A model generated the notes under the pieces. The model was not told the origin of the DNA and did no database searches. It worked only from the letters and a program-made list of their open reading frames with translations. Position numbers and translations under genes: made by a program. Positions 21,591 through 40,113 of a stretch of 64,000 nucleotides of DNA are shown piece by piece (positions within the stretch are counted from its first letter, which is position 1; each line of letters opens with the position of its first letter). Where the stretch lies: the IMG/VR virus record IMGVR_UViG_2890725172_000001, positions 1 to 64,000 of that record; one strand, given 5' to 3'. Origin of the DNA: a virus. Its lineage: Duplodnaviria > Caudoviricetes.

Positions 21591-22287
21591 GGTGTCGGGC
21601 AACACGGACCGGCACGCAGGGCAGTAAGGGTTCTTCAGAAGTCGCCCGGGTTGAGCAGAGCTCCCCACGCGATCGGACCTACTTACTGGGTGTGCGTGCG
21701 AGACGGGATGGTTCCGCCTGGGCCGAATTGTCAACGGCCGGACACAGCTTCATCGACTCTGATTGGCGCACGGGTGAGAAAGCCCTAAAGGCTGACACGA
21801 ACGCGCTAGGTGCATGACCAGACCTGTAACTGGCATGTGCGAGACGGGAACGTCGCGGGACTCTGCGAACACCAGAGATGCGGCGGGAACTAGGTACGCG
21901 TGGAATGCGGCAATCCATTGGCAACCGCAGATCGCCTAGGTACGGGCTTGGTAGTGCTTGTCGGGTACTGAGGAATGGCGATCACCGGACATCGGGCCGA
22001 AATTTGGCCTGGTGATCGGGTAGGCGTAAACGGTGCGCAATCAAGTCGGGTGTATAACGCTCTGGCCCATATCGCGGATTGGGGAACGGAAACCGTGAAG
22101 GTCTGTCAGTAGGACGGTCGGATGTGTAGTTGGCATCCGAACGAGGGCAGAAACCACACGAGGAACGGGAACTGACTCTTAGGAGGTCTGCGGCTTGATA
22201 GCAAGACCGTCGTCTACGAAATGACAGGATGTGGCGCTCCCGGCAGTTGTTAGGTCACACCGGAACAAACGCTTATTGCCTGTCAAC
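21591..22287 (+). ncRNA. Candidate large (~700 nt) structured non-coding RNA
   Basis: No plus-strand ORF in the track; more than 12 helices identifiable by eye; bounded by a promoter and a tRNA mimic. Confidence 0.6.
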
Positions 22288-22357
22288 GCTCTGCTCTGGC
22301 AATTAGAGTAAGGCCGAATTTTGGCCGATTGGGGTTCGATTCCCTGACAGAGCGCCA
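22288..22357 (+). ncRNA. tRNA-like element with encoded CCA
   Basis: GCTCTG/CAGAGC-G-CCA acceptor, CTCT/AGAG arm, GGCC/GGCC arm, GGTTCGATTCC T-loop. Confidence 0.7.
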
Positions 22358-22387
22358 ATTCAGGACAACTGGTTAACCGAAAGAGAG

Positions 22388-22687
22388 ATGACCATGATCA
22401 TGCACGACCGTAGGCACACGTTTGTCTACACGCCCATTCGATTCCGCCGGTTGGAGCGCCGCGCGAACGGCGTGCATATCCGCTTCACCGGCGACCGTCA
22501 CACGTGCAAGTGCGCCTACGTGTGGCTGTACCACAAGTACAGCAAGCCCAACACGGCGCGTGCTTGCACGCGAAACGGCAAGTACGCGGCTATCGCGATG
22601 TACTGGAGTGCGCGCTTCAACTGGAACGGCAAGAACACCATTCGATACAACGGCACCAGTAAGCCGCTGTGGTTAACGCACGTCTAA
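22388..22687 (+). CDS. Basic hypothetical protein
   Basis: First ORF of the rightward operon. Confidence 0.55.
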   Translation: MTMIMHDRRHTFVYTPIRFRRLERRANGVHIRFTGDRHTCKCAYVWLYHKYSKPNTARACTRNGKYAAIAMYWSARFNWNGKNTIRYNGTSKPLWLTHV

Positions 22688-22709
22688 CCACAACCCTAAG
22701 GAGAGAACT

Positions 22710-22862
22710 GTGAAGATCCGAATCGTCAAGTGCCCGAAGCGTACGATCAGCCACGTCATGTGGAACATGACGCCGGTGTTCCTGTGGGCCGGTCCCGAAA
22801 ACGGCTACGACGGACACGTGGTCAAGTTCCGTGGGAACGGACAGTACAACTACGCGATCTAG
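22710..22862 (+). CDS. Small hypothetical protein (50 aa, not in ORF track)
   Basis: AAGGAG RBS, GTG start. Confidence 0.5.
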   Translation: MKIRIVKCPKRTISHVMWNMTPVFLWAGPENGYDGHVVKFRGNGQYNYAI

Positions 22863-22924
22863 GCCGTTGGCGATCAGGGCCGAATTCCATAAGGGGTTCG
22901 GCCTTAGGTCATCTCGGATATGTC
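22859..22924 (+). repeat. Intergenic hairpin family A, copy 1
   Basis: ctaggccgttgg...gccgaattcc-N4-ggggttcggcc...gtcatctcggat. Confidence 0.8.
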
Positions 22925-22945
22925 GCATCAATAGGAGGAATCTCA

Positions 22946-23467
22946 ATGAAGTTCACGACGGTTGACCCACAGCCGGAGGACGACAAGATCATTCCGACGC
23001 ACCGGATCAAGCTCTACGGATACGGCTGGACGCGGTTCCGGCTGATCAGTTTCGAAGCGGACACGGATTATGGCTTCTGGTACGGCAGGGCCCGTGTACA
23101 GGCGATGAACGGCGACGTTCGGTGGATTGACTTTGGTAAGTACAACTACACGAACATCGAATCCCTGACCGAAAACGACAAGGGTGCGTTCCCGTTTCAC
23201 AAGGATGCGCCGCGCGTGGGTGGCGGATACGACAAGGCGGTTCTCGGAGGAACGACGTTCTGTCCTCGTCTCGGAGAGATGACTATTAACGCTATCGCGC
23301 ACACGGACGAAACGTGGGCGGCCGTCGTCATGCAGCCAAAGGAAGGGGACGAGTGGGTGTGTTACATGGTGAACACGAAGACGGGTGAACTGTCGAATGG
23401 CGTGTTCGGTGACATGACAAACGTGTTCGTTCGCTTTGCGGAGCGTGTGAATCCGGCCGCATTCTGA
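22946..23467 (+). CDS. Hypothetical protein
   Basis: AGGAGG RBS. Confidence 0.7.
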   Translation: MKFTTVDPQPEDDKIIPTHRIKLYGYGWTRFRLISFEADTDYGFWYGRARVQAMNGDVRWIDFGKYNYTNIESLTENDKGAFPFHKDAPRVGGGYDKAVLGGTTFCPRLGEMTINAIAHTDETWAAVVMQPKEGDEWVCYMVNTKTGELSNGVFGDMTNVFVRFAERVNPAAF

Positions 23468-23532
23468 CTAGGCCGTTGGTGATTGGGCCCGAATTCCGCC
23501 AGGGGTTCGGGCCTTAGTCATCTCGGATGTGT
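23468..23532 (+). repeat. Intergenic hairpin family A, copy 2
   Basis: Near-identical to 22859-22924. Confidence 0.8.
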
Positions 23533-23552
23533 CATATAGCGAGAGGACAAGC

Positions 23553-23771
23553 ATGGAACTCAAGTTGGGTCAAACGCTTCACCACAACGCCACGGGAGAC
23601 GCCTTGCTGTTGGCTATGGCGTTCACTAGAACGGGACGCACGGTCATCGTTCTATGCGGTGGAAGCGAGTCGGTCTGTACGTTCATCGACGACAACGGAG
23701 AAATGGACGCTGGCATATACGGCACTTTGGGGTGGACCATGGAATGGTTCGCCCGTCGTGTCACTGAGTAA
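23553..23771 (+). CDS. Hypothetical protein
   Basis: GAGG RBS. Confidence 0.6.
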   Translation: MELKLGQTLHHNATGDALLLAMAFTRTGRTVIVLCGGSESVCTFIDDNGEMDAGIYGTLGWTMEWFARRVTE

Positions 23772-23786
23772 GCCGTAAGGACTCGT

Positions 23787-23839
23787 CTAGGACTCGCATC
23801 GGGTCTAGCTCTAGTAGCTAGGCCCCATTGCATGGCTAG
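23787..23839 (+). repeat. Intergenic hairpin family B, copy 1
   Basis: ctaggactcgca-[hairpin]-attgcatggctag. Confidence 0.7.
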
Positions 23840-23994
23840 CCAGTCATGTGTTGGACGCCGATTTTGGAAGGTGTCGCATGTACATGCAGTTCCTTAAGGT
23901 CACCAACACGCGTCGCCTGTTCTACGGCTACAGGATGACGCGCGCCACGTGGCGCAAGTACAAGTAGCCCAACTAGTCAACTCAAGGGAGAGAC

Positions 23995-24300
23995 ATGCAG
24001 ACCACGATTCGTCAGGTCATCCGGCATAAGCGCCGTCCGCGCCGTGAGCCGTCCAAGTCGTACGTCAAGAAGACACGCATGGTCCCGATCAAGGAATGCA
24101 CGGTGAAGGACATCCGGGAACACCTGGCGAACTGTGACCGGTGCATGTCTCCCGGAAGCCTGGTCATCTTCTATCTCGACCGGGAAAAGGCCGCGATTCT
24201 CGCGAATGATGCGAGTGAGGCGCGTTACTGGGGACTCAAGGTGGACAACCAGATTGCCGCCCACCACAAGGGTTGGCTTGAGTTCCCGATCGCGGGCTGA
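23995..24300 (+). CDS. Hypothetical protein
   Basis: GGAG RBS. Confidence 0.65.
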   Translation: MQTTIRQVIRHKRRPRREPSKSYVKKTRMVPIKECTVKDIREHLANCDRCMSPGSLVIFYLDREKAAILANDASEARYWGLKVDNQIAAHHKGWLEFPIAG

Positions 24301-24373
24301 AAAGCCGAAACGCGCAGTGATGCGCGTCGTGTTGGGTGTGGTGCCCAATGCCTGACGACTGGTAGCCGTCAGC
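24296..24373 (+). ncRNA. Type II hammerhead ribozyme (2-nt insertion after the core)
   Basis: GAAA-stem III-GUC-stem I-CUGACGA in order, with all three stems pairable. Confidence 0.7.
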
Positions 24374-24401
24374 TCCGCGCCGAATTTCAGGAGGTAGCAG
24401 T

Positions 24402-24584
24402 ATGACGAACAAGGTCAAGAAACTCGCGCTCTTCTACATCTGGGATTGGAAGCGCCGGGGGTTCTGGCTGTGTCCCACGATTTACGCGGAAGCTATCGCT
24501 GACGCCAAACTCATGGTCGAGTTGTACGGAGACACGGAAGCCGTCAACCGTCGTCTGCGTGAAATGAAGACGTACACCATCTAA
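24402..24584 (+). CDS. Small hypothetical protein
   Basis: AGGAGG RBS. Confidence 0.65.
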   Translation: MTNKVKKLALFYIWDWKRRGFWLCPTIYAEAIADAKLMVELYGDTEAVNRRLREMKTYTI

Positions 24585-24602
24585 GAGCTAGGAGATACGT
24601 AC

Positions 24603-25001
24603 ATGGGTGACCTTGAGTTGGTCATGGCTGATGTCACGCGCTCGCACCGTAGCCAGACGCCGATTTACGACGGCACGGCAAAGGTGATCGCGTCGTGGTG
24701 GTACGGAGGACACAGCCACGCTTTTACTGGCCTCAACATGTCCGGGCGTATCTACATGCCTGAACTCTTGGCGGAAATCGATGGCGCAATTGAGTACGTT
24801 CGAAAGAGCCCTGCAAATCATTGGGACGCACACAAGCGGGTCAACGATCAGGGAACGCGTAGGCACAACCTAGCGGCCTTAGAGGCCCTTAAGGTCTACG
24901 TCCAGTACCACAAGAACCGGGGGCCGCAAGAGGGATGGGGGCGCGTGTGGGTGGATGTGCTCACGCCCGAGGACGAATACAGCATCTTGGAAGGTGAATA
25001 G
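24603..25001 (+). CDS. Hypothetical protein
   Basis: AGGAG RBS. Confidence 0.7.
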   Translation: MGDLELVMADVTRSHRSQTPIYDGTAKVIASWWYGGHSHAFTGLNMSGRIYMPELLAEIDGAIEYVRKSPANHWDAHKRVNDQGTRRHNLAALEALKVYVQYHKNRGPQEGWGRVWVDVLTPEDEYSILEGE

Positions 25002-25003
25002 TC

Positions 25004-25261
25004 ATGTGCCGAAATGACTCGCCTATGGTGACCGTGTACATGCCGTCTAACGGTCTCTATCAGGTGGTACCAAGCCGCCTGGCCGCGATTGAAGCGCGGT
25101 ACCTACCGAACACGCTAGATGATCTCAAGGCGCACGTCCGGCGCATTCTGCGCGACGACTACGGCAACCCTGATGGCGCGATCGTCGCGCACATGGAAGG
25201 AATCGAAACAATCACTCAGTGCCTTGTCGTGCTCGCCGAATTACACGGCATGGGGAGCTAG
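25004..25261 (+). CDS. Hypothetical protein
   Basis: Operon ORF. Confidence 0.6.
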   Translation: MCRNDSPMVTVYMPSNGLYQVVPSRLAAIEARYLPNTLDDLKAHVRRILRDDYGNPDGAIVAHMEGIETITQCLVVLAELHGMGS

Positions 25262-25263
25262 TC

Positions 25264-25318
25264 CTAGGACTCGCAACGCGGGCACCGGTCACGTACCGGT
25301 GTCCTATTGCGTGGCTAG
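25264..25318 (+). repeat. Intergenic hairpin family B, copy 2
   Basis: ctaggactcgca-[hairpin]-attgcgtggctag. Confidence 0.7.
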
Positions 25319-25335
25319 TACAGCACGTTAGTTAG

Positions 25336-25644
25336 GTGCCGAAATATCAGGAGGTCCCGCTAGGCATGGGATTCCAGTACAGCAGTCACATCGCGGCTCT
25401 GGGGGCTCTGCGAACGCTGGCAGACAAAGAGGGGCTTTGGAGTCATCGCGACTTCAGAAGTTCCGGCCCGCAACTGTTGATCGGTGAGCCGGAAACCGGG
25501 AAGTACATCCGCGTGTTCTGCTTCCGCAACAACTACAAGGTGTTCATCCCCGGTGCGCCGGATGACGCACAGGGGATCGTATTCCGGGAAGAGCCGCAGG
25601 AAGTGTTAGACGCACTTCCCGCACTACTCAAGAATGTGACATAA
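25336..25644 (+). CDS. Hypothetical protein
   Basis: Operon ORF; may start at internal ATG after AGGAGG. Confidence 0.6.
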   Translation: MPKYQEVPLGMGFQYSSHIAALGALRTLADKEGLWSHRDFRSSGPQLLIGEPETGKYIRVFCFRNNYKVFIPGAPDDAQGIVFREEPQEVLDALPALLKNVT

Positions 25645-25864
25645 CATGATGGCCGATGAAGACGTAGACGTCGATTTCGAAATCCCGTGGTACGTAGACG
25701 ACGAATTCGATCCCGACCACTGCACGGAACACGGTCACAGTATCGACCTGTGCCGCCATCTCGACTGATCATCTGATCAAGGCCGCACACGTACCACTTC
25801 TCCGGAACGTGTGCGGTCTTATTCATGTGATCCCCAACCATCTAGCCGAAAGGCCGAATTCACC

Positions 25865-26320
25865 ATGCACGAATTCAGCGAGTACCCCAAAAAGGCAGCC
25901 AACGGTAGGGACATGTATTGGGCGTGTTGCGTCTCGACCATTGGCCCGACTTGCGGTCACAAGGCCTTGCCGCAGGATGACTCCATGACGCTCTACCCGC
26001 GTACCGAGCCTCTCAACGTCAACATGCCTAAGACGTACTTCGGTCGCAAGCCTGAAGATCTCACCCATGGTCTGGGGTGGGTGCGTGCCTGCCCGATTTA
26101 TCAGGTGCCGAGTTCTCCCGGCTCTACGCGCCCGGAAGTCGGTGAATACGCATTCTCCTGCTACGTGGTCGAAACGTTCGGCAACGACATGGTGAAAGTG
26201 CGGTTCGACTGGGACGGAGTGCCCGGCCAGCGTGAACAGATCGTCTACCCTCACGAAATTCACGCTCCCAAGTGTCAGTGCCGCGCCTGTAAGACCGACC
26301 ACATTTACAACGTCGACTAG
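25865..26320 (+). CDS. Hypothetical protein
   Basis: Operon ORF, Cys-rich ends. Confidence 0.6.
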   Translation: MHEFSEYPKKAANGRDMYWACCVSTIGPTCGHKALPQDDSMTLYPRTEPLNVNMPKTYFGRKPEDLTHGLGWVRACPIYQVPSSPGSTRPEVGEYAFSCYVVETFGNDMVKVRFDWDGVPGQREQIVYPHEIHAPKCQCRACKTDHIYNVD

Positions 26321-26350
26321 ACCCAAATCCATCGAAACGGAGAGCGCGTC

Positions 26351-27001
26351 ATGATGTTTAATCTCGAAGAGGAGACGGGCTACCGCTGCGCGGTGGACGG
26401 TCGCGACTTCTACACGGAAGAGATGAGGCTCTTACTCAAGGTCAGGTTCCGAATTTCGGTGCCCCTGAAGAACCCCGAGATGTTCGACTACCTGAATGGT
26501 ACGGTGTTCCTCTGCGGGCCGTGCCGTCGTGATTTCGAGCACATCATCGCGCCTCACATCATCAAAGAACGGGAGCACACCTGTCGTGAGCCTGAAGGCG
26601 AACAGGCCAACGAGTGTGAAGCGAACGGGCACCAGGAATACACCGAATATGAGGTGTTGTGGATCGAGGTGTGCGAGTTCGACACTGACGTCAACGGCAA
26701 TCCCAAGTCCATCTATGAGGTCGCGGCAGAGGACATGACGCGTGACTGCGGGTGGCCTCTCACGGACGGATACGACTGGTTCTCTTGGGAGCCCTACCAG
26801 GAATACCGAACCAGCGCCGACACCTGTTACACGCAAGACAAGGCGTTCTTGCGCGGTCAGTGGCCTGATGGTGATCACTACGAGGCTCACGGCCGAATCC
26901 GCGACGTGTTCGACCGCTGGGAGACCAAACGGCGTACCGAGTGGGACGACTACCAGGCGCGCACCGCTGCCCATCAGGCTCGGATGAAGACCAACGCGTA
27001 A
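26351..27001 (+). CDS. Hypothetical protein
   Basis: GGAG RBS. Confidence 0.7.
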   Translation: MMFNLEEETGYRCAVDGRDFYTEEMRLLLKVRFRISVPLKNPEMFDYLNGTVFLCGPCRRDFEHIIAPHIIKEREHTCREPEGEQANECEANGHQEYTEYEVLWIEVCEFDTDVNGNPKSIYEVAAEDMTRDCGWPLTDGYDWFSWEPYQEYRTSADTCYTQDKAFLRGQWPDGDHYEAHGRIRDVFDRWETKRRTEWDDYQARTAAHQARMKTNA

Positions 27002-27087
27002 CGCTGGACGTGGGGCCTGAGATTCGGGGATCAGGCCCTAGCGTCGAACGGACGCGTTAACCTACAAGGCTGCCTACACACCAAAGG

Positions 27088-27522
27088 ATGATCATGACTG
27101 AGACTCGACCGCACCACTGGCACATCGCGCATGGCCTGGCGGGCTACGGACCGGACGGCGCGGACGGCTACAACACCGCTACGGAGATCAGCGGGTCTGG
27201 TGGTCTCGCCGACCAGATCAGCGACGAACTCGACCGAGACGCCGAATCGGCTCACGGTCTGATCAGGACTGAAGGTGAGGCGGGCAACTTCAAAGAGGCC
27301 TTCGAGGCGTGGGAGCTTCACGACAAGCTGACTACGCTGTCCCTCAACTTCAGCATCAGGCGAGAGGACGCGCCTCTCTACAAGGATGATAAGCCGCTGT
27401 GGGAGAGGACCGTTCTCCGGCTGGTGGCCGAAAACTTCCCGCTGGACGTGTCGGACAACTCGCGGATGTACGTGTGGGAGTGCACGGAGCCGGAATGCGA
27501 GCATCTCACCGACGACGAATAA
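27088..27522 (+). CDS. Acidic hypothetical protein
   Basis: AAGGA RBS. Confidence 0.7.
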   Translation: MIMTETRPHHWHIAHGLAGYGPDGADGYNTATEISGSGGLADQISDELDRDAESAHGLIRTEGEAGNFKEAFEAWELHDKLTTLSLNFSIRREDAPLYKDDKPLWERTVLRLVAENFPLDVSDNSRMYVWECTEPECEHLTDDE

Positions 27523-27751
27523 GCTTCCCCGCCGAAATCTCGGGCCCTGGCGAAATCGCTAGGGCCTTTGTCATACATAGGAATAGGAACGCGGATGTCA
27601 AGCTACACACCCACCACATGTCCTCAGTCAGGTTGTGGGCAGCAGGGAACATTCCTGTCGAACTACGGAACCGGCAATGAGGCCCTGTACATGTGTCCGA
27701 ACAACCACCAGTGGACTGCCAAGAAGAAGTAACCCACCAGAAAGGTAGAAC

Positions 27752-28075
27752 ATGAACACCGAGCGATTCACGCCGGAATACTTCAAGCCGCGCGTTGCCA
27801 AAGGCGTCGACAAGCTCGACGAGAAGAACCCCGGATGGTTCCACGATGTCAATCCGGACCTGTTAGAGATGGACTCCGCCGACGCCTGTATCCTCGGCCT
27901 GCTCTACGGCTGGTACTTCAGTGGGCTCCGAGCCTTGTCTGTCACGGACGGTACAGAATTCGGCTACAACATCGACTTCGAAGAGTCCGACTGCGATGAG
28001 GTCCGGTCGGAGGCCTGGCACACGCTTCTAGTCCTCTGGCTGGACGTCATCGATGAGAAGAGGAAGGCATCATGA
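27752..28075 (+). CDS. Hypothetical protein
   Basis: RVAKGVDKLDEKNPGW...CILGLLYG. Confidence 0.7.
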   Translation: MNTERFTPEYFKPRVAKGVDKLDEKNPGWFHDVNPDLLEMDSADACILGLLYGWYFSGLRALSVTDGTEFGYNIDFEESDCDEVRSEAWHTLLVLWLDVIDEKRKAS

Positions 28076-28347
28076 CCACCGTGACCGATGGTTGGCGCGT
28101 CGGCGACGTCGTCAGGCTCCCGGCCGATCAGACCGTGTGGGAAGTCGATAGCGTCTACCGGCGTCAGGGTGAGGTGGTCGAACTGATCCTAGGCCGCTCG
28201 GATGCAAACACCACGGATGATGGTGCCCGGTGGGCTCGCGGAACCGTGAGGGCTGTGTCTCCGGATCGCGTCACACGGGTCAAGCACTGGTACGAGCGCA
28301 CGCTCTACGGCTTGGATGAAGAGTCCCGTTGGGGCGAGCCTGCCTAG
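28072..28347 (+). CDS. Hypothetical protein
   Basis: ATGA-coupled ORF. Confidence 0.65.
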   Translation: MTTVTDGWRVGDVVRLPADQTVWEVDSVYRRQGEVVELILGRSDANTTDDGARWARGTVRAVSPDRVTRVKHWYERTLYGLDEESRWGEPA

Positions 28348-28378
28348 CTTCTGCCAAATCTCCTAGACAAGGACACTC

Positions 28379-28789
28379 ATGGACACGGGATTACTTCTCT
28401 GGCGCGTAACTCTGCAATGGCAGAAGAAGATTACGGCTGCTCTTAAGCCCTTGGGCCTGACCCACGTGCAGTTTGCTCTTATGAGTGAGCTGGAGCGCGT
28501 GAGGTCCGAAGACGGGCAGGTCAACCAGAAGCAGCTAGCCAGGCGAGCACGCACAGACGAGATGATGACCGGGCAGGTCCTGCGGGTTCTCGAAACGCGG
28601 GGGCTGGTCATCCGGTGGCGCGCTGAGAGCAACCGGCAAAGCATTCTGGTTAGGCTGACGGACCTTGGGCACGAGCGCCTGACCACGGCTACACCTGTCG
28701 TCAAGGCCGTCGATGACACGTTCTTCGGGGCTGCCGAGCCGGACCTGAGAGACCTCTTTACCCTGCTGGGTGAGAGCGAGACTGCCTAG
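28379..28789 (+). CDS. MarR-family transcriptional regulator
   Basis: GLLLWRVT..WQ.....ALKPLGLTHVQF, VLRVLETRGLVIR, VRLTDLG. Confidence 0.9.
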   Translation: MDTGLLLWRVTLQWQKKITAALKPLGLTHVQFALMSELERVRSEDGQVNQKQLARRARTDEMMTGQVLRVLETRGLVIRWRAESNRQSILVRLTDLGHERLTTATPVVKAVDDTFFGAAEPDLRDLFTLLGESETA

Positions 28790-28867
28790 CCTGGCCCGAA
28801 AATCGGCCCCCTGTCGTAGGGCCCCACTACCCTGCACCTGATACATAGAGCGAGAGGACACACCGGC

Positions 28868-29140: not shown

Positions 29141-29166
29141 CCCGACCAACACCGAGAGGACACGAT

Positions 29167-29631: not shown

Positions 29632-29643
29632 GAAGACCAACGA

Positions 29644-29705
29644 CTGAACGGCCTGTACCCGACTACCCCTCACGTCAGGTGGTGGGTAGTCCGTAGAGGT
29701 TTCAG
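29644..29705 (+). repeat. Intergenic hairpin family C, copy 1
   Basis: ctga...cctgtac-[hairpin]-gtagagg...tcag. Confidence 0.65.
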
Positions 29706-29742
29706 CCGGAACCCATTCCCGCCGATTTCTGAGAGGCTACAT

Positions 29743-29913: not shown

Positions 29914-29924
29914 GAGACCAAGCA

Positions 29925-30173: not shown

Positions 30174-30211
30174 CTGTACGACATATCAGGCTGCGACAAA
30201 GGTAGGCGCAC

Positions 30212-30868: not shown

Positions 30869-30881
30869 ATTCTGACCCACA

Positions 30882-30942: not shown

Positions 30943-30985
30943 CAGGGCCATACTCCGGGCCGAAATTCACAGACAAGGAATCAAT

Positions 30986-31555
30986 ATGACTGAGAGCACC
31001 ACGCCGCGCCTGCACATCAAGGTCACGGACACTCAGGACCGGTACATCGGGGAGAACTGGTTCGACGCGACCGACTATTACGCCGTAGACGAAGGGCTTG
31101 AAGAGATCGTCAGTGAAGCGAGTGACGTCCTCACGTACAAGACGGAGATCATCGGCTCCGAGGGGTTCGGCTGGTTCGCTGACAAGCTCTCCGGCCTGTC
31201 GGTCGAGAAGGCATGCGGCATCGGCTACCTGATCGAAGAGAAGGGGCTCGACGTCGTCACCGAGTGGCACAAGCTTCGTGGCCCCATCGAGTACTTCCCC
31301 GCCGACGCGATCGACGCGGAGCGGAAGTTCGACGCCGAATACCAGGGAGAGTTCAGCTCCGCTGGCGCGTTCGCCAAGGACTACGTTCCCCAGCAGCACG
31401 CCGAAATGTTTGAGACGGTGCCGAGAAACATCGTCGAGAACATCAACTGGGAGGGTGTGGCCGAGAGTCTGCACGGCCATTACGGCGTCACGGTGGTAAG
31501 CAGGGGTCCTGGTCAGTGGGACGGCGTCGTGGTCTTCCGTCTGGAGAACGAGTAA
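30986..31555 (+). CDS. ardA: Antirestriction protein, ArdA family
   Basis: Acidic; IGENWFD, EGFG, YQGEFSS...FA, INWEGVA. Confidence 0.8.
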   Translation: MTESTTPRLHIKVTDTQDRYIGENWFDATDYYAVDEGLEEIVSEASDVLTYKTEIIGSEGFGWFADKLSGLSVEKACGIGYLIEEKGLDVVTEWHKLRGPIEYFPADAIDAERKFDAEYQGEFSSAGAFAKDYVPQQHAEMFETVPRNIVENINWEGVAESLHGHYGVTVVSRGPGQWDGVVVFRLENE

Positions 31556-31557
31556 CC

Positions 31558-32141: not shown

Positions 32142-32240
32142 ATCTCAGGCGATGTTACTTGATCTGATCGAGAGGATCATCCGGGACATCCTCCGTAGTC
32201 GTCAGCGCCGAAATTCCCGACAGAAAAGGAGAGGAGACTC

Positions 32241-32606: not shown

Positions 32607-32607
32607 C

Positions 32608-32901
32608 ATGATCGACGAGAGGGAGATTCTTGAGGCCCTTCGCGCGACTGACGAGCGACTGGTGGCGGAGCAGGATCTCACACCCGTTCAGCTGATCCTT
32701 CGGGACAGGCCTGAGACGGGTGTCACCGTTCTTCGCCGGGCCTACGAGATGGGCGGCGACATCCTTAACGCGTGGGATGTCCTGGCGTCGGCTCTGACCA
32801 TTCAGAAGAGCGTGGAAGCGGTTCTCGAACACCTCGGCCACGACCTCGGAATGACGATCCTCAGGAAGGTCGCTGAGCTCAAGTACAACGCCAAGCTCTA
32901 A
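32608..32901 (+). CDS. Hypothetical protein
   Basis: AAGGAG RBS. Confidence 0.65.
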   Translation: MIDEREILEALRATDERLVAEQDLTPVQLILRDRPETGVTVLRRAYEMGGDILNAWDVLASALTIQKSVEAVLEHLGHDLGMTILRKVAELKYNAKL

Positions 32902-32931
32902 CGTCGGACCAACATCAAAGAGGAATAACCC

Positions 32932-33495
32932 ATGTCAGCGCCGGAGAGATATTTCATCGACTTCGCCACATCGGAAATGGCGTCATGGATCGCCAGCATG
33001 CCGGAACTGGCGGACGTACCTGCCGCCACCGTCGCTGGGTGGCGCGTGACCATGTACAGCGCTGCCCTCGACGTCCTCAAGGAACTGGACAACGAGCACG
33101 ACGGCTTCTACGACGGCACCAGCATCTGGGTTAGCGGTGACGAGTTCACCGTGCATGCCCTCACTGAGACCGTCGACCTGTTAGAGCGGGTTCTCTACGA
33201 CCTCGCTGTGAGGGCGAAGAGTCGCATTTTCCAATTCGGCTCCGATTATCTGGCGCTGCACCCGGAAGACGCCCAGGCCGGGGAGAAAGAAGACGACCCG
33301 TTCGACACGCTTCTGAGCGCGGAGCTGATGCGGATCGAAGGAATCGCAGAGGCCATGGAACTGGTCCTCGGCTTCGACGACAAGGGGCGTCCCTCCCGAG
33401 CGGTCCGGGTCAAAGACCTGATCAATACGTCTGAAGTGACCGCGCTCAAGGAGAGGGTCAACGCCCGAGCAGGCCGACCGATCTTCGACATCTGA
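32932..33495 (+). CDS. Hypothetical protein
   Basis: GAGG RBS. Confidence 0.7.
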   Translation: MSAPERYFIDFATSEMASWIASMPELADVPAATVAGWRVTMYSAALDVLKELDNEHDGFYDGTSIWVSGDEFTVHALTETVDLLERVLYDLAVRAKSRIFQFGSDYLALHPEDAQAGEKEDDPFDTLLSAELMRIEGIAEAMELVLGFDDKGRPSRAVRVKDLINTSEVTALKERVNARAGRPIFDI

Positions 33496-33542
33496 CCTGG
33501 GTCATCGTCCCTTTGAGGGGTGTACCACCAACAGACCCGTAG

Positions 33543-33863
33543 ATGGAGAAACACATGGACATAAGAGACGAGAAGACACTCATCCCGGTCGCCGAGCTTC
33601 TCGCGAAGTGGGCCGTCGCCGATGCTGACGGTCCGGTGGCTCGGCTGACGAGGCTGTACGAGAACACCGAAGAGACGGCGACCTTTCGGACCATCCTCAT
33701 GAACGCCTCGGTCGAGGTGGGCGGCGCGATCTCGGAGGCCGCCTACGACCTGATGTTCAGTACCGACCCCGCCGACGACGAGAGCTGTTCGGTCCGGCGC
33801 GGCTGGGTCGTCAACTCGGCGATCAACCGGGTATCCGAGTCGCACTCATGGATTCGCCCCTGA
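33543..33863 (+). CDS. Hypothetical protein
   Basis: Operon ORF. Confidence 0.6.
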   Translation: MEKHMDIRDEKTLIPVAELLAKWAVADADGPVARLTRLYENTEETATFRTILMNASVEVGGAISEAAYDLMFSTDPADDESCSVRRGWVVNSAINRVSESHSWIRP

Positions 33864-33981
33864 TTCGCTGCGCACTCTCTCACCTCCCGGCTTCGGGGAC
33901 GGAAGGTGAGGGACTCGCTGGAATCAGTCCAGCACAGTTGTAGGGGCCGAAATTCGGAGAGGACATGAGGAAGAGAGACGC

Positions 33982-34647
33982 ATGAGTAAGAGCATCGAGA
34001 TTGGCACCGTTCACATCACCGAGAAGTACGAGGAGAGGGAACGGGCGTTCCAGACGGCATCCTGGTGGCGTGACAACGACGTGGCGCCGCAGTCGGTGGC
34101 ATTGATGGGTGAGTTCTCCGGCGGCCAGCTCATCGACTGGTGGTACACGCTGGACACGGTGATCACGGCCGATTATTTCGCATCGTCCGGGTTCGGTATC
34201 ACGCTGGACTACGACACCGCACAGAACGCGGGCAAGCCCAACAAGATCACGCACCGCACGTACTGCTACATCCTGGCCGAGCTGCTCGCGGTGAAGAAGG
34301 GTGAGCTCAAGCACGGGTTCATCGTGCTCGACCCGAACCTGAAATTCCGGATCAGTACCTTCGAGGGCTCAGGGCATCGCATGTCCCGGCTACACAACCC
34401 GGTCTGCATGGACTGTGCCGCGCCGATCCGTATCGCGACCGAGTACGAGCGCTGGGCCGGAGTCGACCGTCTGAAGAACCCACATGCGTTCCCGGCGCGT
34501 GAGTACATGCACGTCACCGACACGGACGGTGAGCCACACAACGGTCGGCCGACGAAAGAGAGCTGGCTCGACTACACCATCCCCAACGTCCAGTACCGGC
34601 TGCACCTCGTCGAGGACGGGGCCGAAATCAAGGAGAACCAGGCATGA
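33982..34647 (+). CDS. Hypothetical protein
   Basis: Operon ORF with RBS. Confidence 0.7.
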   Translation: MSKSIEIGTVHITEKYEERERAFQTASWWRDNDVAPQSVALMGEFSGGQLIDWWYTLDTVITADYFASSGFGITLDYDTAQNAGKPNKITHRTYCYILAELLAVKKGELKHGFIVLDPNLKFRISTFEGSGHRMSRLHNPVCMDCAAPIRIATEYERWAGVDRLKNPHAFPAREYMHVTDTDGEPHNGRPTKESWLDYTIPNVQYRLHLVEDGAEIKENQA

Positions 34648-34979
34648 CCGAGTACACGCCCTACGGCTGGGTCATCACCGAGGACCTGATCACCAATGGC
34701 GAGTACAACGGGGTGATGGGGCCGCGCACGATGGACCCCGAACTTGAGGCGCGTCTTGAAGCCGGAGAGGGCACGGAGTTCCGTCTGCTCGACGACGACG
34801 GCGAGCACTACGCCACTGGCCGGATCATCGGCCCGGCCGACCCCGACTGGGGGAAGAAGGCGAAGGAGTACGAGATGGTCGAATGGGAGTTCGCTCCGCT
34901 CCACGAGTTCGGCGCGAGGAACTGGGGCTGCACCGACGTGCAGTACAAGAACGACGCCGGTGAGTGGAAGAACCTGTAG
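34644..34979 (+). CDS. Hypothetical phage protein
   Basis: FRLLDDDGEHYATG...FAPL.EFG..NWGCTDVQY. Confidence 0.75.
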   Translation: MTEYTPYGWVITEDLITNGEYNGVMGPRTMDPELEARLEAGEGTEFRLLDDDGEHYATGRIIGPADPDWGKKAKEYEMVEWEFAPLHEFGARNWGCTDVQYKNDAGEWKNL

Positions 34980-35027
34980 GACCGTAACGAGAAGCGCAAC
35001 AAGTTAACCAATTAAGGAGACAATCAC

Positions 35028-35561
35028 ATGGACTTCGAGATCACCCTCATCGACCTCAACCCCGAAGGCAACGTCGACCACGTGTTCAACCTGCTCGACG
35101 ACGACCTGATGAACGACGTCAACGCCGCCTTCGGTGACGAGGGCAGCAACGAGGACGCGAAGGAGGGCGTGCATTTCAAAGTCGGCCCGGTCAACGGGAT
35201 GGAGCCGCTGTACGACGAGGGCGAGGTGCCTGATGCCTCCTTCGCCGAGATTCTTCGCGCCGCGCGGCTGGCCGCGCAGGCTAAGGACGAGTCCTGGGAG
35301 GGGTTCCTCGCCTGGGTCGACGACACGGGCGGCGGTCTTCGGTTCTACCCTGACGACGACGAGGCGCTGAAGACCTTCCGGAAGCAGTTCCGGGGCGAGT
35401 ACGAGGACCTGGAAGAGTACGCGAAGGAGTGGGCCGAGGACCAGGGCGCTCCCGAGGCGATGTTCGGCTACATGGACTGGGACGGCTTCGGCGTGTGGCT
35501 CGCGACGGACTACAACGTCATCGACCTGCCGAGCGGTAACATCGCGATCTTCACGAAGTAG
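35028..35561 (+). CDS. ardA: ArdA-family antirestriction protein
   Basis: Highly acidic; FRGEYEDLEEYA, YMDWDGFG..LATDY. Confidence 0.75.
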   Translation: MDFEITLIDLNPEGNVDHVFNLLDDDLMNDVNAAFGDEGSNEDAKEGVHFKVGPVNGMEPLYDEGEVPDASFAEILRAARLAAQAKDESWEGFLAWVDDTGGGLRFYPDDDEALKTFRKQFRGEYEDLEEYAKEWAEDQGAPEAMFGYMDWDGFGVWLATDYNVIDLPSGNIAIFTK

Positions 35562-35630
35562 ATCAGCTCCGCCCGAATTTTCAGGCTCGGCACACACGGT
35601 GTCGGGCCTTCGTCATGTCTGGAGGTACTT

Positions 35631-36167
35631 ATGGACTTCGATCCTTATATCACTCTCGTCAGCCTGGACGGCTGGGCGAGTACGCGGATGCGCCTGCTGG
35701 ATTGGGACGACGAGCGCGCCAAAGAGATCAGGCTGCTGTTCGGCGAGAACGCCAAACAGGGGAGCCACTTCAACATCGAAAGCATCGATGGGATGGAGCC
35801 GCTCTGGCACCCAGTCGGAGACACCTACAGGGATCTGGAGCTGCGTCACATCGTAGTGATCGCTCGGCGAGCGAGGCTGTGCAAATCACCACAGGCGTTC
35901 CTTGCGTGGATCAAGCTGATCCGGTCCGACCTCATCGGGAAAGAAGGCCTTTCCTTCGATGCGGTCACGTCGTACTTCCAGGCGTCCTTCCGAGGCGAGT
36001 TCGCCAGCCTGGCCGGATACGCGCGACAGTGGGCTGACGGTCAGCGGTGGCATCCCTACGTGCGCCTGCACATCGACTGGGACGGGCTCGGCCGGTCGCT
36101 CACAGAGGATGCCGTGGTCGCTGAGCTCCCGAACGGCAAGATCGCGGTACTCACGTACAACACCTGA
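35631..36167 (+). CDS. ArdA-like paralogue with reduced acidity
   Basis: FRGEFASLAGYA, HIDWDGLG; shares MDF, GMEPL and ELPNGKIA-type motifs with the upstream gene. Confidence 0.65.
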   Translation: MDFDPYITLVSLDGWASTRMRLLDWDDERAKEIRLLFGENAKQGSHFNIESIDGMEPLWHPVGDTYRDLELRHIVVIARRARLCKSPQAFLAWIKLIRSDLIGKEGLSFDAVTSYFQASFRGEFASLAGYARQWADGQRWHPYVRLHIDWDGLGRSLTEDAVVAELPNGKIAVLTYNT

Positions 36168-36350
36168 TCACCACGGCGAGCGGAAGGTCACCGGCGACGG
36201 CGGGATCACCGCTCAGGGAGGATCCGACCAGCATCGGTCGGGCGCAGGCCAGTACGGGCTGTGTCCGGCCGTTTTTGTTTGGCCCCTCACGACGGCTCTC
36301 CACAGCGGGTGGGTGAGCTATACCTACACGAGTAAGAAAGGAGCCTACTC

Positions 36351-36731
36351 ATGGGGACTGCGATCTTGGTCAAACGGAAGCCTGTTCGCATCAACTACTC
36401 GGTGAACACTACGGTGTATGAACGTGCGATTGAGCTGGCCGCCACGATGAACCTGACGGTGCCTCAGGTGCTCACACACCTCATCCCTCAGGTGCTGGCG
36501 CGGCCGGAGCCGCAGTGGCGGCCGACGCTGGCGGTTCTGCGGATGCATGGCCCGCAGAACCGTCAAGAGTTCGCGAACGTGCCTGAGGACCTTCTCAAGG
36601 ACGGAGAGGAGAATTTCCTGCCGGGCGCCGAAACTCCGCTAGAGCGTGGACGGCTGGCGGCGATGGTACTGAACTACTACGTGGCTGGGGTGATCACGCT
36701 CAACGTCAAGGTGGAGCTCAATGAACCGTGA
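36351..36731 (+). CDS. Hypothetical protein (possible ribbon-helix-helix)
   Basis: RINYSVNTTVYERAIELAATMNLTVPQVL. Confidence 0.6.
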   Translation: MGTAILVKRKPVRINYSVNTTVYERAIELAATMNLTVPQVLTHLIPQVLARPEPQWRPTLAVLRMHGPQNRQEFANVPEDLLKDGEENFLPGAETPLERGRLAAMVLNYYVAGVITLNVKVELNEP

Positions 36732-37383
36732 AGACGTCCTTCGCCGAATTCGAGCAGCCCTAGATCAGGCTAACCACCGGAGTACACCGCGCGGTCAGGC
36801 CATCTCGGCGCTGGCGGTGGCGACGAAGCTAGCACAGCGCCTCGGTCTCGACGATCCCCGCCAGGCCGTGGTCGACGTCGCCTGGTACGAGATCAGCACA
36901 CGCGGCCAGCATCACCCCGAACGCGGCGAGGCTCTGTGGGAGGTCAGTGAGACTCTCGGCTGCCGTGCCGTGCTACATGGTCACCGGCGCCGGGATCGAC
37001 CGGCGCACCTGGAGCTGATCGGCCAGCCGCCGACGCTGGAATGGCTGTGTGATCGACTGCTTCCCTCGGTCTCCTTTCAGATGGAGATGCGCTTGATGGA
37101 GGAGCTTCTCCAGCGTCGTGGACAATCCCGTACCGACCGTACCGATTTTGTACGAGGATGGTATGGCGGCTGGGGGAGCGAGGTCGCCGAAGTGCTCCGG
37201 CTACGGGGCAGGGCTCGCGAAGTGACCGAGCTTGTCGACGCCGAATTTCGCAGGCGCCACCCACAGCTGCACCCCAACAGAACGATCTATTTCTCCCCCC
37301 AAGGGCATGCCCTCGGCCGACAGGCCGGTCAGGTGGTGGACCTCGGGGATCGAGTTCTCATAGAAGGCGACAACAGTGAGTGA
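36721..37383 (+). CDS. DUF2786-like protein
   Basis: VLRRIRAALDQA...A.KL..RLGL N-terminus; G..AG..VDLG C-terminus. Confidence 0.65.
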   Translation: MNREDVLRRIRAALDQANHRSTPRGQAISALAVATKLAQRLGLDDPRQAVVDVAWYEISTRGQHHPERGEALWEVSETLGCRAVLHGHRRRDRPAHLELIGQPPTLEWLCDRLLPSVSFQMEMRLMEELLQRRGQSRTDRTDFVRGWYGGWGSEVAEVLRLRGRAREVTELVDAEFRRRHPQLHPNRTIYFSPQGHALGRQAGQVVDLGDRVLIEGDNSE

Positions 37384-37780
37384 ATCGGAGCGGGAAAGGC
37401 CCGACGAATACAGGACGCCGATTGATGAGTTCATCGACAAAGCTCGTCGCGCTCAAGGGTTGAGCTGGAACGAACTCGTCGAAAAAGCAAGGATGACAAA
37501 ATCGGGCTTGATGTCCGTCCGCAATGGCGATACTCGATCCATTAGGCCGAAGACCTCTACTGGGCTCGACGATGCACTCGGCCTGCCGCGCGGAACAATC
37601 GAAAAGGTCTTTAAGGGAGACACTGCTATCGACATGAGTCCGAAGATCCTTACCGTACACTCCTCTGCGCGCATCAGCCCCGAAATGGCAATGCAGCTTC
37701 TAGAGCTCGCCAACAAGCACGGTCACGCTCTGATCATCAAGGACAACGCCAACACTGAGGAAGAGGGTCGAAATGAGTGA
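37376..37780 (+). CDS. XRE-family HTH protein
   Basis: RRAQGLSWNELVEKARMTKSGLMSVRNG...LDDALGLPRG. Confidence 0.8.
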   Translation: MSESERERPDEYRTPIDEFIDKARRAQGLSWNELVEKARMTKSGLMSVRNGDTRSIRPKTSTGLDDALGLPRGTIEKVFKGDTAIDMSPKILTVHSSARISPEMAMQLLELANKHGHALIIKDNANTEEEGRNE

Positions 37781-38060
37781 CGAGAAGAAGAAGTACACCA
37801 CGGTCGCCGGATCCGAATTCGACATGGCGTTCACGGTGGTGGTCCGCGTCAGGCAGACGGACGTGACGGGAGTCGACCGTCCGCATTACGAGATCGCGCA
37901 AGCGGCCCTGAATCACTTCAAGCACGCCCGGACCCTTCAGGTCGCGGCCCGCGCCGGAGAGAACATGCACCACGCCGGTTTCTACGAGATCGAGACGGTC
38001 GCGGTCCGCGCGGTTCAATTCCTTGATCTTCGGCGCGAGCTCCGAGAGGACGGGATGTAA
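37773..38060 (+). CDS. Hypothetical protein
   Basis: Coupled ORF. Confidence 0.6.
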   Translation: MSDEKKKYTTVAGSEFDMAFTVVVRVRQTDVTGVDRPHYEIAQAALNHFKHARTLQVAARAGENMHHAGFYEIETVAVRAVQFLDLRRELREDGM

Positions 38061-38064
38061 TTAC

Positions 38065-38418
38065 ATGGGTAAGGACCTGAGAAAGGACGCCGACGACTAC
38101 GCCCACGACTTCGTCGCGATCCTGAAGGAACGTATTCCCATTCTTCGTAGCGACGGTGGCTTGGCTCGGACCCTTCGCGATGCGGTGGAGAAGCACTACC
38201 TCGATCCCAACCCTGATCCTGACGCCATTATCGCCCTTCCCGAAGGCGGGTACGGCGTGTGGCAGGTAAGGACATTGCTGGAGGACGACGATAAACGACG
38301 TCTGAAAGTACTGGCTCAGGACTCAGAGGGCTGGCCGGTGCGACATGCTGACGAGCGCTACCTCAACGACGAGCTCGCGTATCTATGGAGCAAGATCCGA
38401 TCGGACGATCCGACGTGA
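38065..38418 (+). CDS. Hypothetical protein
   Basis: Operon ORF. Confidence 0.6.
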   Translation: MGKDLRKDADDYAHDFVAILKERIPILRSDGGLARTLRDAVEKHYLDPNPDPDAIIALPEGGYGVWQVRTLLEDDDKRRLKVLAQDSEGWPVRHADERYLNDELAYLWSKIRSDDPT

Positions 38419-38594
38419 GTACCCACGACAAGTGCAAGACGATCGCTGAGAATCCTGAAGGCGGCTATCTGATCTGTTATAAATCGCCTCACCCGAATAA
38501 CCCTGAGCACTATGATCCGAGCGAGGAAAAGCGGTGGACCGACGCCGAGATTCCCCCACTCGTCAAGAAGACAAAGAGACTGAGGAATCGATGA
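38415..38594 (+). CDS. Small hypothetical protein
   Basis: GTGA/ATGA coupling. Confidence 0.55.
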   Translation: MSTHDKCKTIAENPEGGYLICYKSPHPNNPEHYDPSEEKRWTDAEIPPLVKKTKRLRNR

Positions 38595-39064
38595 CCGATG
38601 ATCTGAGCCCTGGCTCCCACGCTTTGGCTGAAATTCTCAGCACCATGCCGGACAGCAGCGTTGAGGATGGACACGAGTACGTGTTCGTCTACAAGAAGAG
38701 AGGCCATGACCGGCTGCAACTCCTGGAGTCCGGCGAGAGCGGAGCTCAAGCTGTTTGGGCCCGTAAGGGCCGTAAGGGCCAGGGGCTCATTCTCCGGCGC
38801 CGCAAAACCATCGCCACGGTGTACGGGGAGTGGGAGACCGCTCCCCTAAACGATCTCGGGGAGATCGCCGACGACGAGGCCGCCGACAGGGTCGAGCTGT
38901 TCCTCCAACGACGAGCGGAGATGTCCGAGAGCGGTGCCCTCGACAAGAACCTCATCCACTCCCTCGACGGAAAGCCGGGCGACGACACGATATACGAGCT
39001 GACCATGGAAGATCTGTGGACGCTCGTGAATCGGAGCCGAGGAAATTGGGAGGTGTCTGAATGA
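38591..39064 (+). CDS. Hypothetical protein
   Basis: Coupled ORF. Confidence 0.65.
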   Translation: MTDDLSPGSHALAEILSTMPDSSVEDGHEYVFVYKKRGHDRLQLLESGESGAQAVWARKGRKGQGLILRRRKTIATVYGEWETAPLNDLGEIADDEAADRVELFLQRRAEMSESGALDKNLIHSLDGKPGDDTIYELTMEDLWTLVNRSRGNWEVSE

Positions 39065-39193
39065 TTGGCTGCAAATGCGGCGCCCGAACCTACAAGGGCC
39101 ACCTGAAGAAGTGCGCTGATGGTTACCCGGACCACGTCTACAAGGGAACCGATGTGTTTCGCATCAAGTTCGAGTACAAGGAGGACTAACCAA

Positions 39194-39670
39194 TTGACTG
39201 AGTGGATCAACGTCAGGGTCGTAACAGACAACAGTGTGGACTCGACGCACAGCTTCGAGCTCGACGTGCATCAGCGCCTCGTCGTTCATCGTGGAGGCAA
39301 ACTGCTGTTCACCATCCACGGCGCCATGCAGCAGCCGATCGTCCCGTTACGGCAGGACGAGAACGCCGGAGAATTCCGCACGATGGAGACCTTGTACCTG
39401 GTCAACCTCGTCACGGCGTTCGCCCTCGGCCTGTGGCGGGAAGAGCTCCAGGCCGCCAAGGCAGAACGGCCTGCCGACGTCAAGCCGACTCTGCTCGCGC
39501 AGGATGTGGTGGACAACCTGGAGCTTCGGCTGATGGAGGTCGCTGAGAAGTCTCAGGACATCGAAGAGGTTCGGCTGGCTTCCCGGATCCTGCCTCTGCT
39601 GGCGCCGAAAACCCGGCTCTACTGGCCCGCCGTCGCCGACGCGTTGGTCACCAACCTCAAGGAGAACTGA
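39194..39670 (+). CDS. Hypothetical protein
   Basis: GGAGG RBS, TTG start. Confidence 0.6.
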   Translation: MTEWINVRVVTDNSVDSTHSFELDVHQRLVVHRGGKLLFTIHGAMQQPIVPLRQDENAGEFRTMETLYLVNLVTAFALGLWREELQAAKAERPADVKPTLLAQDVVDNLELRLMEVAEKSQDIEEVRLASRILPLLAPKTRLYWPAVADALVTNLKEN

Positions 39671-39671
39671 C

Positions 39672-40037
39672 ATGCATCACAATCACGCCAGCTTCCCTCG
39701 CGACGACAAAGAGCCACTGATCATGCGGACCACCGACAAGGTCTGTGAGGTGCTCACCTGGTACAAGCTCGTCGAGGATTACGTCGAGACCATGAACGAC
39801 ATCTACGACGGCGTACGCGATGAGCACGACGTCCCTCGGTGGACGTACATGGCGCTGTTCCCCGGACCCGACGTCCTGCCGATTCTGTGCACCTTCGAGG
39901 GGCGCGAGCCGGTCGGCGACCACCCGGTCGGCACCCGGGACTTCTATCTGATGGGTCTGGTCGGCGGCCAGCACAAGGAGATGGCCGACCCGAACGGCAA
40001 GCCCATCATGTTCAGCTACATTCCCGCTGACGTCTGA
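39672..40037 (+). CDS. Hypothetical protein
   Basis: AAGGAG RBS. Confidence 0.6.
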   Translation: MHHNHASFPRDDKEPLIMRTTDKVCEVLTWYKLVEDYVETMNDIYDGVRDEHDVPRWTYMALFPGPDVLPILCTFEGREPVGDHPVGTRDFYLMGLVGGQHKEMADPNGKPIMFSYIPADV

Positions 40038-40090
40038 TCGCCTGTACCACTCCCGGGGCTTCGGTCCCGGGACACAGTAGAGGGATTCAG
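40034..40090 (+). repeat. Intergenic hairpin family C copy
   Basis: ctgatcgcctgtac-[hairpin]-gtagagggattcag. Confidence 0.65.
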
Positions 40091-40113
40091 CCGGAATTTC
40101 GAAGGGAGGCATT

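Follow-up and report, generated by a model that had tools for sequence, protein, structure and literature searches.

The DNA considered here is a window of 64,000 nucleotides that forms the first 64 kb of contig C45 (110,447 bp, 62.2% GC), part of the 8.3 Mb genome (70.6% GC) of an actinomycete, and the element in question is a short oriented word, GCCGAWWT (W is A or T), that recurs at the junctions between its early genes. C45 encodes a tail sheath, baseplate proteins, a ribonucleotide reductase, helicases of the DnaB and SNF2 types, ThyX, an RNA ligase of the Rnl1 type, a polynucleotide kinase-phosphatase, two integrases and 14 tRNAs. The presence of myovirus and integrase genes, together with the rest of the gene content, indicates a large temperate myovirus-like element of an actinomycete; the nearest deposited phages belong to the Streptomyces BRock group, with a sheath identity of 43%. 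Gene calls based on the GC content of third codon positions were made for this analysis, and some small genes were missed. Genes run leftward up to position 20,839 and are followed by a 1.5-kb non-coding region, about 44 small rightward genes that end at 43,466 and then mostly leftward genes. The early block, 20840–43466, contains 3,825 nt of non-coding DNA. It holds three ArdA-like anti-restriction genes and one MarR-like gene, and the remainder of its genes have no family.

The window contains 29 exact copies of GCCGAAWT, where 3.4 are expected (standard deviation 1.6, maximum 7, in 100 dinucleotide shuffles). The plus strand carries 24 of these copies and the minus strand five, which agrees with the impression of an earlier note on this DNA that the reverse complement is the rarer form. 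Over the whole contig GCCGAWWT is found 45 times on the plus strand and 14 times on the minus strand. In the non-coding DNA of the early block there are 13 plus-strand copies, where composition predicts 0.22, and a single minus-strand copy; the density there is about ten times that of other non-coding DNA. Upstream of rightward genes GCCGAWWT is the top word apart from the ribosome-binding site (RBS) itself. Copies at gene junctions are restricted to the early block and have one orientation, and further copies are selected within structural genes. The end of the word lies 13–28 nt from the start codon, with the Shine–Dalgarno tract outside the word.

Alignment of 18 early copies gave the extended consensus T..gGGCCGAAWTTc, of about 15 bits, and revealed no second conserved box further upstream. 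The consensus has partial dyad symmetry: in 10 of the 18 copies TTC comes within 0–2 nt after the word, where chance would give 4.7%, and at its best the right half agrees with TTCGGC at 3.9 of six positions on average, where 2.7 would be expected. The rest of the host genome has about 1.5 copies of GCCGAAWT per 100 kb per strand, versus 31 per 100 kb on the plus strand of the contig. The host total (136 + 108 copies in 8.2 Mb) is about that predicted from composition by our own arithmetic. A host Chi or KOPS sequence was rejected because the word is not over-represented in the host chromosome.

Every exact position listed in the earlier note exists; among its variants, those at 23487, 28794 and 35571 read GCCCGAAW, those at 23857 and 29721 read GCCGATTT and that at 40090 reads GCCGGAAT. 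Additional exact copies were found at 25338 and, in or at the edges of plus-strand genes, at 25008, 25235, 31400, 36743 and 37240. Most early gene cassettes open with the word, either 1–5 nt before the RBS or just after the preceding stop codon and before a hairpin, and hairpins lie upstream of the word, over it or downstream of it.

In the larger group of sites, all on the plus strand, a stop codon is followed by a strong hairpin (−14 to −38 kcal/mol); about 30 nt further on comes the word, and then the Shine–Dalgarno tract. The tract starts 1–5 nt after the word in six of eight such spacers, or at seven of nine sites if copy 34621 within a gene end is counted, and the claim that the motif often sits just upstream of the RBS is therefore well founded. 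The members are 23857..23864 (GCCGATTT, after a hairpin and 1 nt before the Shine–Dalgarno tract), 24379..24386 (2 nt before AGGAGG), 25338..25345 (after a hairpin, 3 nt before AGGAGG), 29721..29728 (GCCGATTT, after a hairpin of −35 kcal/mol and 2 nt before GAGAGG), 30959..30966 (after a hairpin and before the ArdA-like gene 30986–31555), 32207..32214 (11 nt before the RBS), 33946..33953 (near-perfect dyad CCGAAATTCGG, 2 nt before GGAGAGG), 34621..34628 (in the 3′ end of gene 33982–34647, 2 nt before the RBS of the next gene) and 40090..40097 (GCCGGAAT, after a hairpin and 5 nt before AGGGAGG, in a spacer related to 29632–29742). The spacers 25262–25345 and 23785–23864 are paralogous; about 100 nt can be aligned, and both hairpin arms have changed together. 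As several spacers are paralogous, the junctions are not all independent, and the significance of RBS adjacency is overstated by rough binomial estimates (about 5e-6 to 5e-4).

In the smaller group, also on the plus strand, the order is stop codon, 4–20 nt, word, hairpin, a second word CCTTnGTCAT and RBS. The copy at 22879..22886 lies 16 nt past the stop codon in the 5′ arm of a strong hairpin, ahead of CCTTnGTCAT, the RBS and the start codon. The variant at 23487..23495 has an extra C, and the opposite arm of its paralogous hairpin has a matching extra G. The other members are 27531..27538, 8 nt past the stop codon and followed by a hairpin and CCTTnGTCAT; the variant 28794..28802, 4 nt past the stop codon with a small dyad, GGCCCGA-AAA-TCGGCC; and the variant 35571..35579, 9 nt past the stop codon and followed by a hairpin, CCTTnGTCAT and the ArdA-like gene 35631–36167. 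The second word, CCTT-N1-2-GTCAT, is itself oriented and stands directly 3′ of the hairpins at 22902, 23512, 27565 and 35607 (plus strand); CCTTnGTCAT occurs five times on the plus strand of the window, four of them at these sites, and never on the minus strand. An AdpA box, which only the extra-C variants resemble, was set aside as a reading. One more plus-strand copy, 25853..25860, is 4 nt before the ATG at 25865, with a GAAAGG tract just 5′ of it. The word directly precedes two of the three ArdA-like paralogues (30986–31555, 35028–35561 and 35631–36167).

Three further plus-strand copies lie in the 1.5-kb non-coding leader. At 21722..21729 GCCG belongs to the stem and AAUU to the loop of a hairpin; 21996..22003 is at the tip of a long hairpin and forms a near-dyad, GGCC-GAAATTT-GGCC; and 22313..22320 lies in the arm at the anticodon-arm position of a tRNA-like element (about 22288–22357). 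From such placements the earlier note had proposed a translational regulator that binds RNA, with the leader RNA serving as sponge, by analogy with CsrA and CsrB. The regulator would bind GCCGAAWU by the RBS and be titrated by the three leader copies. In a related variant, considered here in addition, the word would be an endoribonuclease site punctuating the operon. The observations behind the proposal hold, as the three copies are at leader hairpin tips and the word adjoins the RBS in most spacers of the larger group, and the AAWU part is predicted to be unpaired at most sites. A hammerhead ribozyme and the tRNA-like element in the same transcript also suggest an RNA built for processing. 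The regulator and sponge themselves found no support. Folding predictions place the word fully base-paired in strong hairpins at 22879 and 23487, although it is exposed elsewhere; the motif differs from the GGA that a sponge RNA of this type carries in many hairpin loops, the leader contains only three copies of the word, a search of the 100%-complete genome for CsrA (PF02599) gave no match, and no RNA-binding domain was detected among about 80 proteins scanned. A cleavage site would be redundant where the hammerhead shares a spacer with the word. With the excess in opposite-strand genes and the use of the reverse complement in the same slot by a sister phage, both described below and the latter incompatible with any single RNA-binding protein, these points make an RNA-binding regulator or a cleavage site most improbable.

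The type II hammerhead ribozyme is at 24303..24371 on the plus strand (Rfam RF02276, 43.9 bits), in the spacer of copy 24379, which begins 8 nt past its end; it is context and not part of the word. A hammerhead core at each copy, with its CUGANGA box and GUH cleavage triplet, was rejected: RF02276 gave no other match up to E=10 in 20500–41500, and either the invariant A15.1 or the G12-A13-A14 core is missing from the AATT and ATTT variants. The tRNA-like element (22288–22357, plus strand), with a T arm GGGGTTCGATTCCC, an acceptor-like stem and a GCCA end, closes the non-coding leader. It was not called by ARAGORN, Rfam gave no match up to E=10, no relatives came from pattern scans for its arm in viral and metagenome contigs, and the folding z-score of the stretch 21558–22360 is only −2.1. 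Mimicry of the tRNA-Phe anticodon arm was dismissed, the arm of the phage tRNA-Phe being unrelated to the word, as was a translation enhancer that would pair with 16S rRNA, since the 16S gene and the following 3.6 kb contain no complement.

Outside the early block, plus-strand copies are found at 5710, 7317, 10889, 13408, 46963, 54708 and 61757, most of them antisense in minus-strand genes as NAW-TTC-GGC codons. The minus-strand copies are at 10917, 12191, 18098, 27957 and 33233. Over the whole contig the plus-strand word occurs 13 times in minus-strand genes, against 1.8 expected from a codon shuffle and 3.1 from a synonymous shuffle that keeps the protein sequence and the codon usage of each gene (P<0.001). 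The plus-strand copies that the earlier note had seen among minus-strand genes are thus real and no by-product of codons. More generally, a background derived from GCC-GAA-type codons does not account for the word: the enrichment survives codon and synonymous-codon shuffles, the host control agrees, and the copies are strongly biased in position towards gene starts. Of the 14 codons that precede TTC-GGC, 10 end in A or T; the share is 20% overall, and 27% where TTC stands before some other codon. The choice of NAW at this place is the most extreme of 196 codon-pair contexts, and ATTTCGGC ranks eighth among all 8-mers for excess on the coding strands of minus-strand genes. No such intragenic effect was seen in host genes, nor in phage BRock, where the word is absent and which was for this reason abandoned as a comparator; the word CTGACAAC is absent from both BRock and C45.

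Relatives closer than BRock were found by a scan of species genomes: in Nonomuraea roseoviolacea a 112-kb contig (G401:C24) whose sheath is 56% identical, in Nonomuraea sp. SYSU D8015 an integrated prophage (G403:C1, about 635.5–746.5 kb) whose sheath is 59% identical, and a further relative in N. typhae. Searches of the Phages collection by DNA, of IMG/VR with two early proteins, of 5.8 billion proteins and of the genus genomes returned no relatives, and a family-wide sheath search returned distant prophages only. Fifty-six core genes are shared, whereas homologues of the C45 early proteins are almost entirely absent from the N. roseoviolacea phage (G401) and the SYSU D8015 prophage (G403). 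The GCCGA core is kept across the phages, while the A/T part drifts, being AAAT or AATT in C45, ATTT in G401 and AATTC in G403.

The G401 phage carries the word 46 times on the plus strand and 16 times on the minus strand; between 20 and 40 kb there are 21 copies against 2.3 expected, nearly all GCCGATTT. The junction before the C45 gene at 34644 (copy 34621) is kept in G401:C24 at 39633 as the word followed by CAAGGAGAA and ATGACCGAG. Plus-strand genes of G401 have the forward word GCCGATTT in front of the RBS. The leaders of its small minus-strand genes (24.8–29.5 kb) read AAATCGGC, 3–6 nt, GAAAGGA or similar, 6–8 nt and ATG, so that the reverse complement fills the slot before the RBS at at least six minus-strand junctions, each with a clean open reading frame. 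This arrangement fits a site on duplex DNA and rules out a single RNA-binding protein. Such a protein was rejected as reader, since it cannot read both the word and its complement and leaves the antisense selection and the stem-buried copies unexplained.

At synonymous sites G401 has an excess of the plus-strand word in minus-strand genes (21 versus 6.2) and in plus-strand genes (7 versus 1.6); the other orientation is also raised (11 versus 4.0). The corresponding values in G403 are 10 versus 4.2 and 7 versus 1.5. Where X-Phe-Gly peptides are conserved, C45 has GAT or CAA and G403 has GAC or CAG, and these copies of the word were therefore made by codon choice. No junction copies of the word were found in G403. 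Its early leaders carry CACACAGAAAGGCGG instead, a different start-associated leader before at least eight early genes (G403:C1 660–676 kb, L066/L067). A second repeat, TCTCYCWAACCGGGAR, occurs at three junctions of the same interval. The G403 early block also contains two type II hammerheads (L066 11402–11480 and 13659–13728, 42.8 and 37.1 bits); as they are present in the early blocks of both C45 and G403, intergenic hammerheads are a trait of this phage lineage.

The earlier note had proposed as its second possibility a polar DNA signal, for instance a stoperator-like or translocation site. The general form of this idea stands, as the word is strand-locked in all three related phages, irrespective of gene direction, while its orientation does not follow the stoperator rule and no sign of a role in translocation was seen. 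The strand lock could reflect a signal in DNA metabolism, read on one strand by a machine working directionally along the genome; examples would be site-specific nicking as in T5-like phages, priming of the lagging strand or the orientation of a translocase in the manner of Chi or KOPS. The copies are spaced fairly evenly through the arms (1–5 per 10 kb) and kept there by selection at synonymous sites, the bias is strongest where the C45 plus strand is G-rich (about 20 to 90 kb), and the word is specific to the phage. A signal of this kind explains the strand lock and the intragenic spacing better than a network of regulatory sites. It does less well with the tenfold density in early non-coding DNA and leaves the tight spacing to the RBS unexplained; the GC skew of G401 is flat and the bias nevertheless persists; the low frequency in the host excludes host Chi or KOPS; and we know of no primase or nickase that uses such a word. 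On balance a role in DNA metabolism seems unlikely.

The use of both orientations beside RBSs also permits a code of 8-nt complementarity, in which rightward RNAs (early leaders and leader-RNA loops) carry GCCGAWWU and leftward mRNAs carry AWWUCGGC, and pairing beside the RBS damps translation. The two sets of transcripts would then silence each other's translation and help to set the timing, or the decision between lysis and lysogeny, without a protein. A single rule would cover the strand lock, the RBS adjacency in both orientations, the display in leader loops and the selection of the complement in opposite-strand genes, and the C45 leftward leaders at 54708, 82556 and 107542 do carry the complement 8–16 nt before the RBS, copy 54708 being 24 nt upstream of the start of its minus-strand gene. 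Only 8 nt would pair, however, and the flanks have no extended complementarity; stem-buried copies could not pair at all, and G403 has intragenic copies but no leader copies. To our knowledge, there is no precedent for such control of one mRNA by another, and we consider this code very unlikely.

The cassette order of hairpin, word, RBS and genes, with a hairpin whose position varies as in the promoter-early stem-loops (PeSLs) of T4-type phages, raises the possibility of a phage-specific promoter or initiator without a −35 box that opens each early cassette after a terminator-like hairpin, the copies in opposite-strand genes giving rise to antisense RNAs. The 20-kb block is poorer in sigma-70-type promoters than chance (2 versus 5.4). 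The core GCCGA is identical to the first five bases of the sigma-28/WhiG −10 box, GCCGATAA, and in both an A or T comes next; GCCGAAAT is found in a paper on FliA promoters. A sigma-28/WhiG/FliA promoter was rejected, as the TAAA expected about 15 nt upstream of GCCGATAA is absent from all 18 sites, and neither it nor any other −35 sequence is conserved there. A start 6–8 nt downstream would fall within or after the Shine–Dalgarno tract at 5 of 10 sites. A search for Sigma70_r2 gave 70 matches in the host and none on C45, where no RNA polymerase gene was seen either, and the complement before G401 minus-strand genes could not be served by one promoter orientation. A promoter is thus decidedly improbable.

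These constraints point to a reader at the level of DNA or to complementarity between RNAs, and we find a DNA docking signal of the phage lineage more likely than a signal in RNA read by a translation regulator. Our preferred reading, offered tentatively, is that GCCGAWWT is a lineage-specific word read on DNA, forming a network of regulatory binding sites at swappable early gene junctions. The extended form T..gGGCCGAAWTTc would be half of a dyad, GCCGA-W2-3-TCGGC, private to the lineage, and its partial symmetry and information content suit a DNA-binding protein. We infer that the reader is a protein, most likely phage-encoded, that would recognize this sequence on double-stranded DNA rather than act as a translation factor on mRNA. 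The copies packed between stop codon and RBS in the hypervariable early cassettes probably regulate these cassettes as a network of operators or roadblocks. They may also be short conserved junction sequences beside which genes were exchanged, and weaker selection would retain the extra copies within genes. The early proteins have almost no homologues in the relatives and yet the word persists, which is the pattern of conserved regulatory cassettes such as PeSLs (PMC2839356). The inconsistent RNA context, paired at two junctions and exposed elsewhere, likewise counts for reading on DNA.

Several points weigh against a DNA-binding network. No reader protein was found: the MarR-like gene (28379–28789) and the HTH_3 gene (37376–37780) were rejected as candidates because they are not conserved in the phage DNA of the relatives, the conserved SpoVS-like and WhiB-like genes occur also in BRock, which lacks the word, and an Atlas look-up of the first early protein as a candidate was uninformative (pLDDT 0.36). 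A symmetric dimer leaves unexplained why the intact half-site is almost exclusively on the plus strand, and tight Shine–Dalgarno spacing is unexpected for a duplex site unless it was inherited through cassette duplication, of which the paralogous spacers are a sign. The leader hairpins at 21996 and 22313 keep right-arm pairing only through G-U pairs, which favours a single-stranded reading there. Finally, G403 has the intragenic excess without junction copies, and two different pressures may therefore be at work.

Whatever the reader, the orientation of the word goes with the genome rather than with the gene, even where an RBS follows directly, and the word is under selection at synonymous sites in three phages with otherwise unrelated early genes, which goes against the usual assumption of a translational role. 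The word is short and exact, and the phage contig and an integrated relative are present in culturable Herbidospora-like and Nonomuraea strains, which makes experiments feasible.

Other features of the region are as follows. The AT-richer divergent control region (20840–21560) contains repeated GSCATTTAY-type words and the only plus-strand sigma-70-like match in a promoter scan of the early block (20910–20939). The GC skew of C45 has its minimum in this region and its maximum near 90 kb; the leftward genes at 44000–64000 and on the contig at 64–90 kb have a C-rich coding strand (plus-strand skew +0.1 to +0.18), the reverse of the usual coding-strand bias. A terminator-like hairpin, with runs of A and of T at its flanks, lies between convergent genes at 10889–10924; its stem consists of an inverted pair of the 8-mer (10889 and 10917). 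Minus-strand genes include those for a SpoVS-family protein (54734–55015, 83.5 bits) and a WhiB-like regulator (59285–59617), both core genes common to the Nonomuraea relatives and BRock, and an array of 14 tRNA genes (50093–51275). Plus-strand copy 54708 sits just downstream of the SpoVS gene. A tyrosine integrase was identified by Pfam at 145–1413, and the 582-aa protein at 2036–3784 matched nothing in Pfam at E<0.01.

Early regions of actinophages commonly carry oriented junction motifs, of which start-associated sequences (SAS) and stoperators are examples. Stoperators are the 13-bp sites of L5 gp71 and point with transcription in both arms; the immunity repressor binds them, and at the early lytic promoter such a site serves as operator. 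In Cluster A phages they form dozens of dispersed asymmetric sites, mainly in short intergenic gaps of temperate actinophages (PMC3203893). The C45 word is similarly numerous, asymmetric and placed mainly in short gaps, but it is 8–11 bp long and its orientation is fixed to the genome instead of the gene: the plus orientation is kept in C45 minus-strand genes and before G401 minus-strand genes. No match to an early-promoter operator was found, the promoter-like sites at 20910–20939 being free of copies, and no repressor was identified.

The SAS and ESAS of Cluster K mycobacteriophages comprise 11–19 copies of a short asymmetric word, confined to the non-structural region, directly before start codons and nearly all pointing the same way; inverted repeats precede about half of them, and the word is phage-specific, absent from the host and of unknown function (Pope et al. 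2011, PMC3203893). The C45 word is likewise short and asymmetric; its junction copies keep to the early block in one orientation and the host is not enriched in it, but extra copies are selected within structural genes. SAS measure 13 bp and include the Shine–Dalgarno core, 3–7 bp from the start codon, whereas the C45 word of 8–11 bp lies 5′ of the RBS or after the preceding stop codon; it is also selected inside genes, and its reverse complement precedes opposite-strand genes in a sister phage.

The PeSLs of T4-type phages are repeated regulatory cassettes before small ORFan early genes and are linked to gene shuffling (Arbiol et al. 2010, PMC2839356). The C45 spacers have the same layout, with a stem-loop at variable position relative to the motif and the RBS and start codon at the 3′ end, upstream of ORFans in a plastic region where the genes differ between relatives and the word stays. 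In PeSLs the motif is a complete sigma-70 consensus promoter whose activity has been demonstrated (PMC2839356), while the C45 word has no −35/−10 pair and no conserved upstream positions, in a block where sigma-70 matches (2 against 5.4 expected) are scarce. The word of this phage lineage thus resembles SAS, stoperators and PeSL cassettes in layout but belongs to none of these classes.

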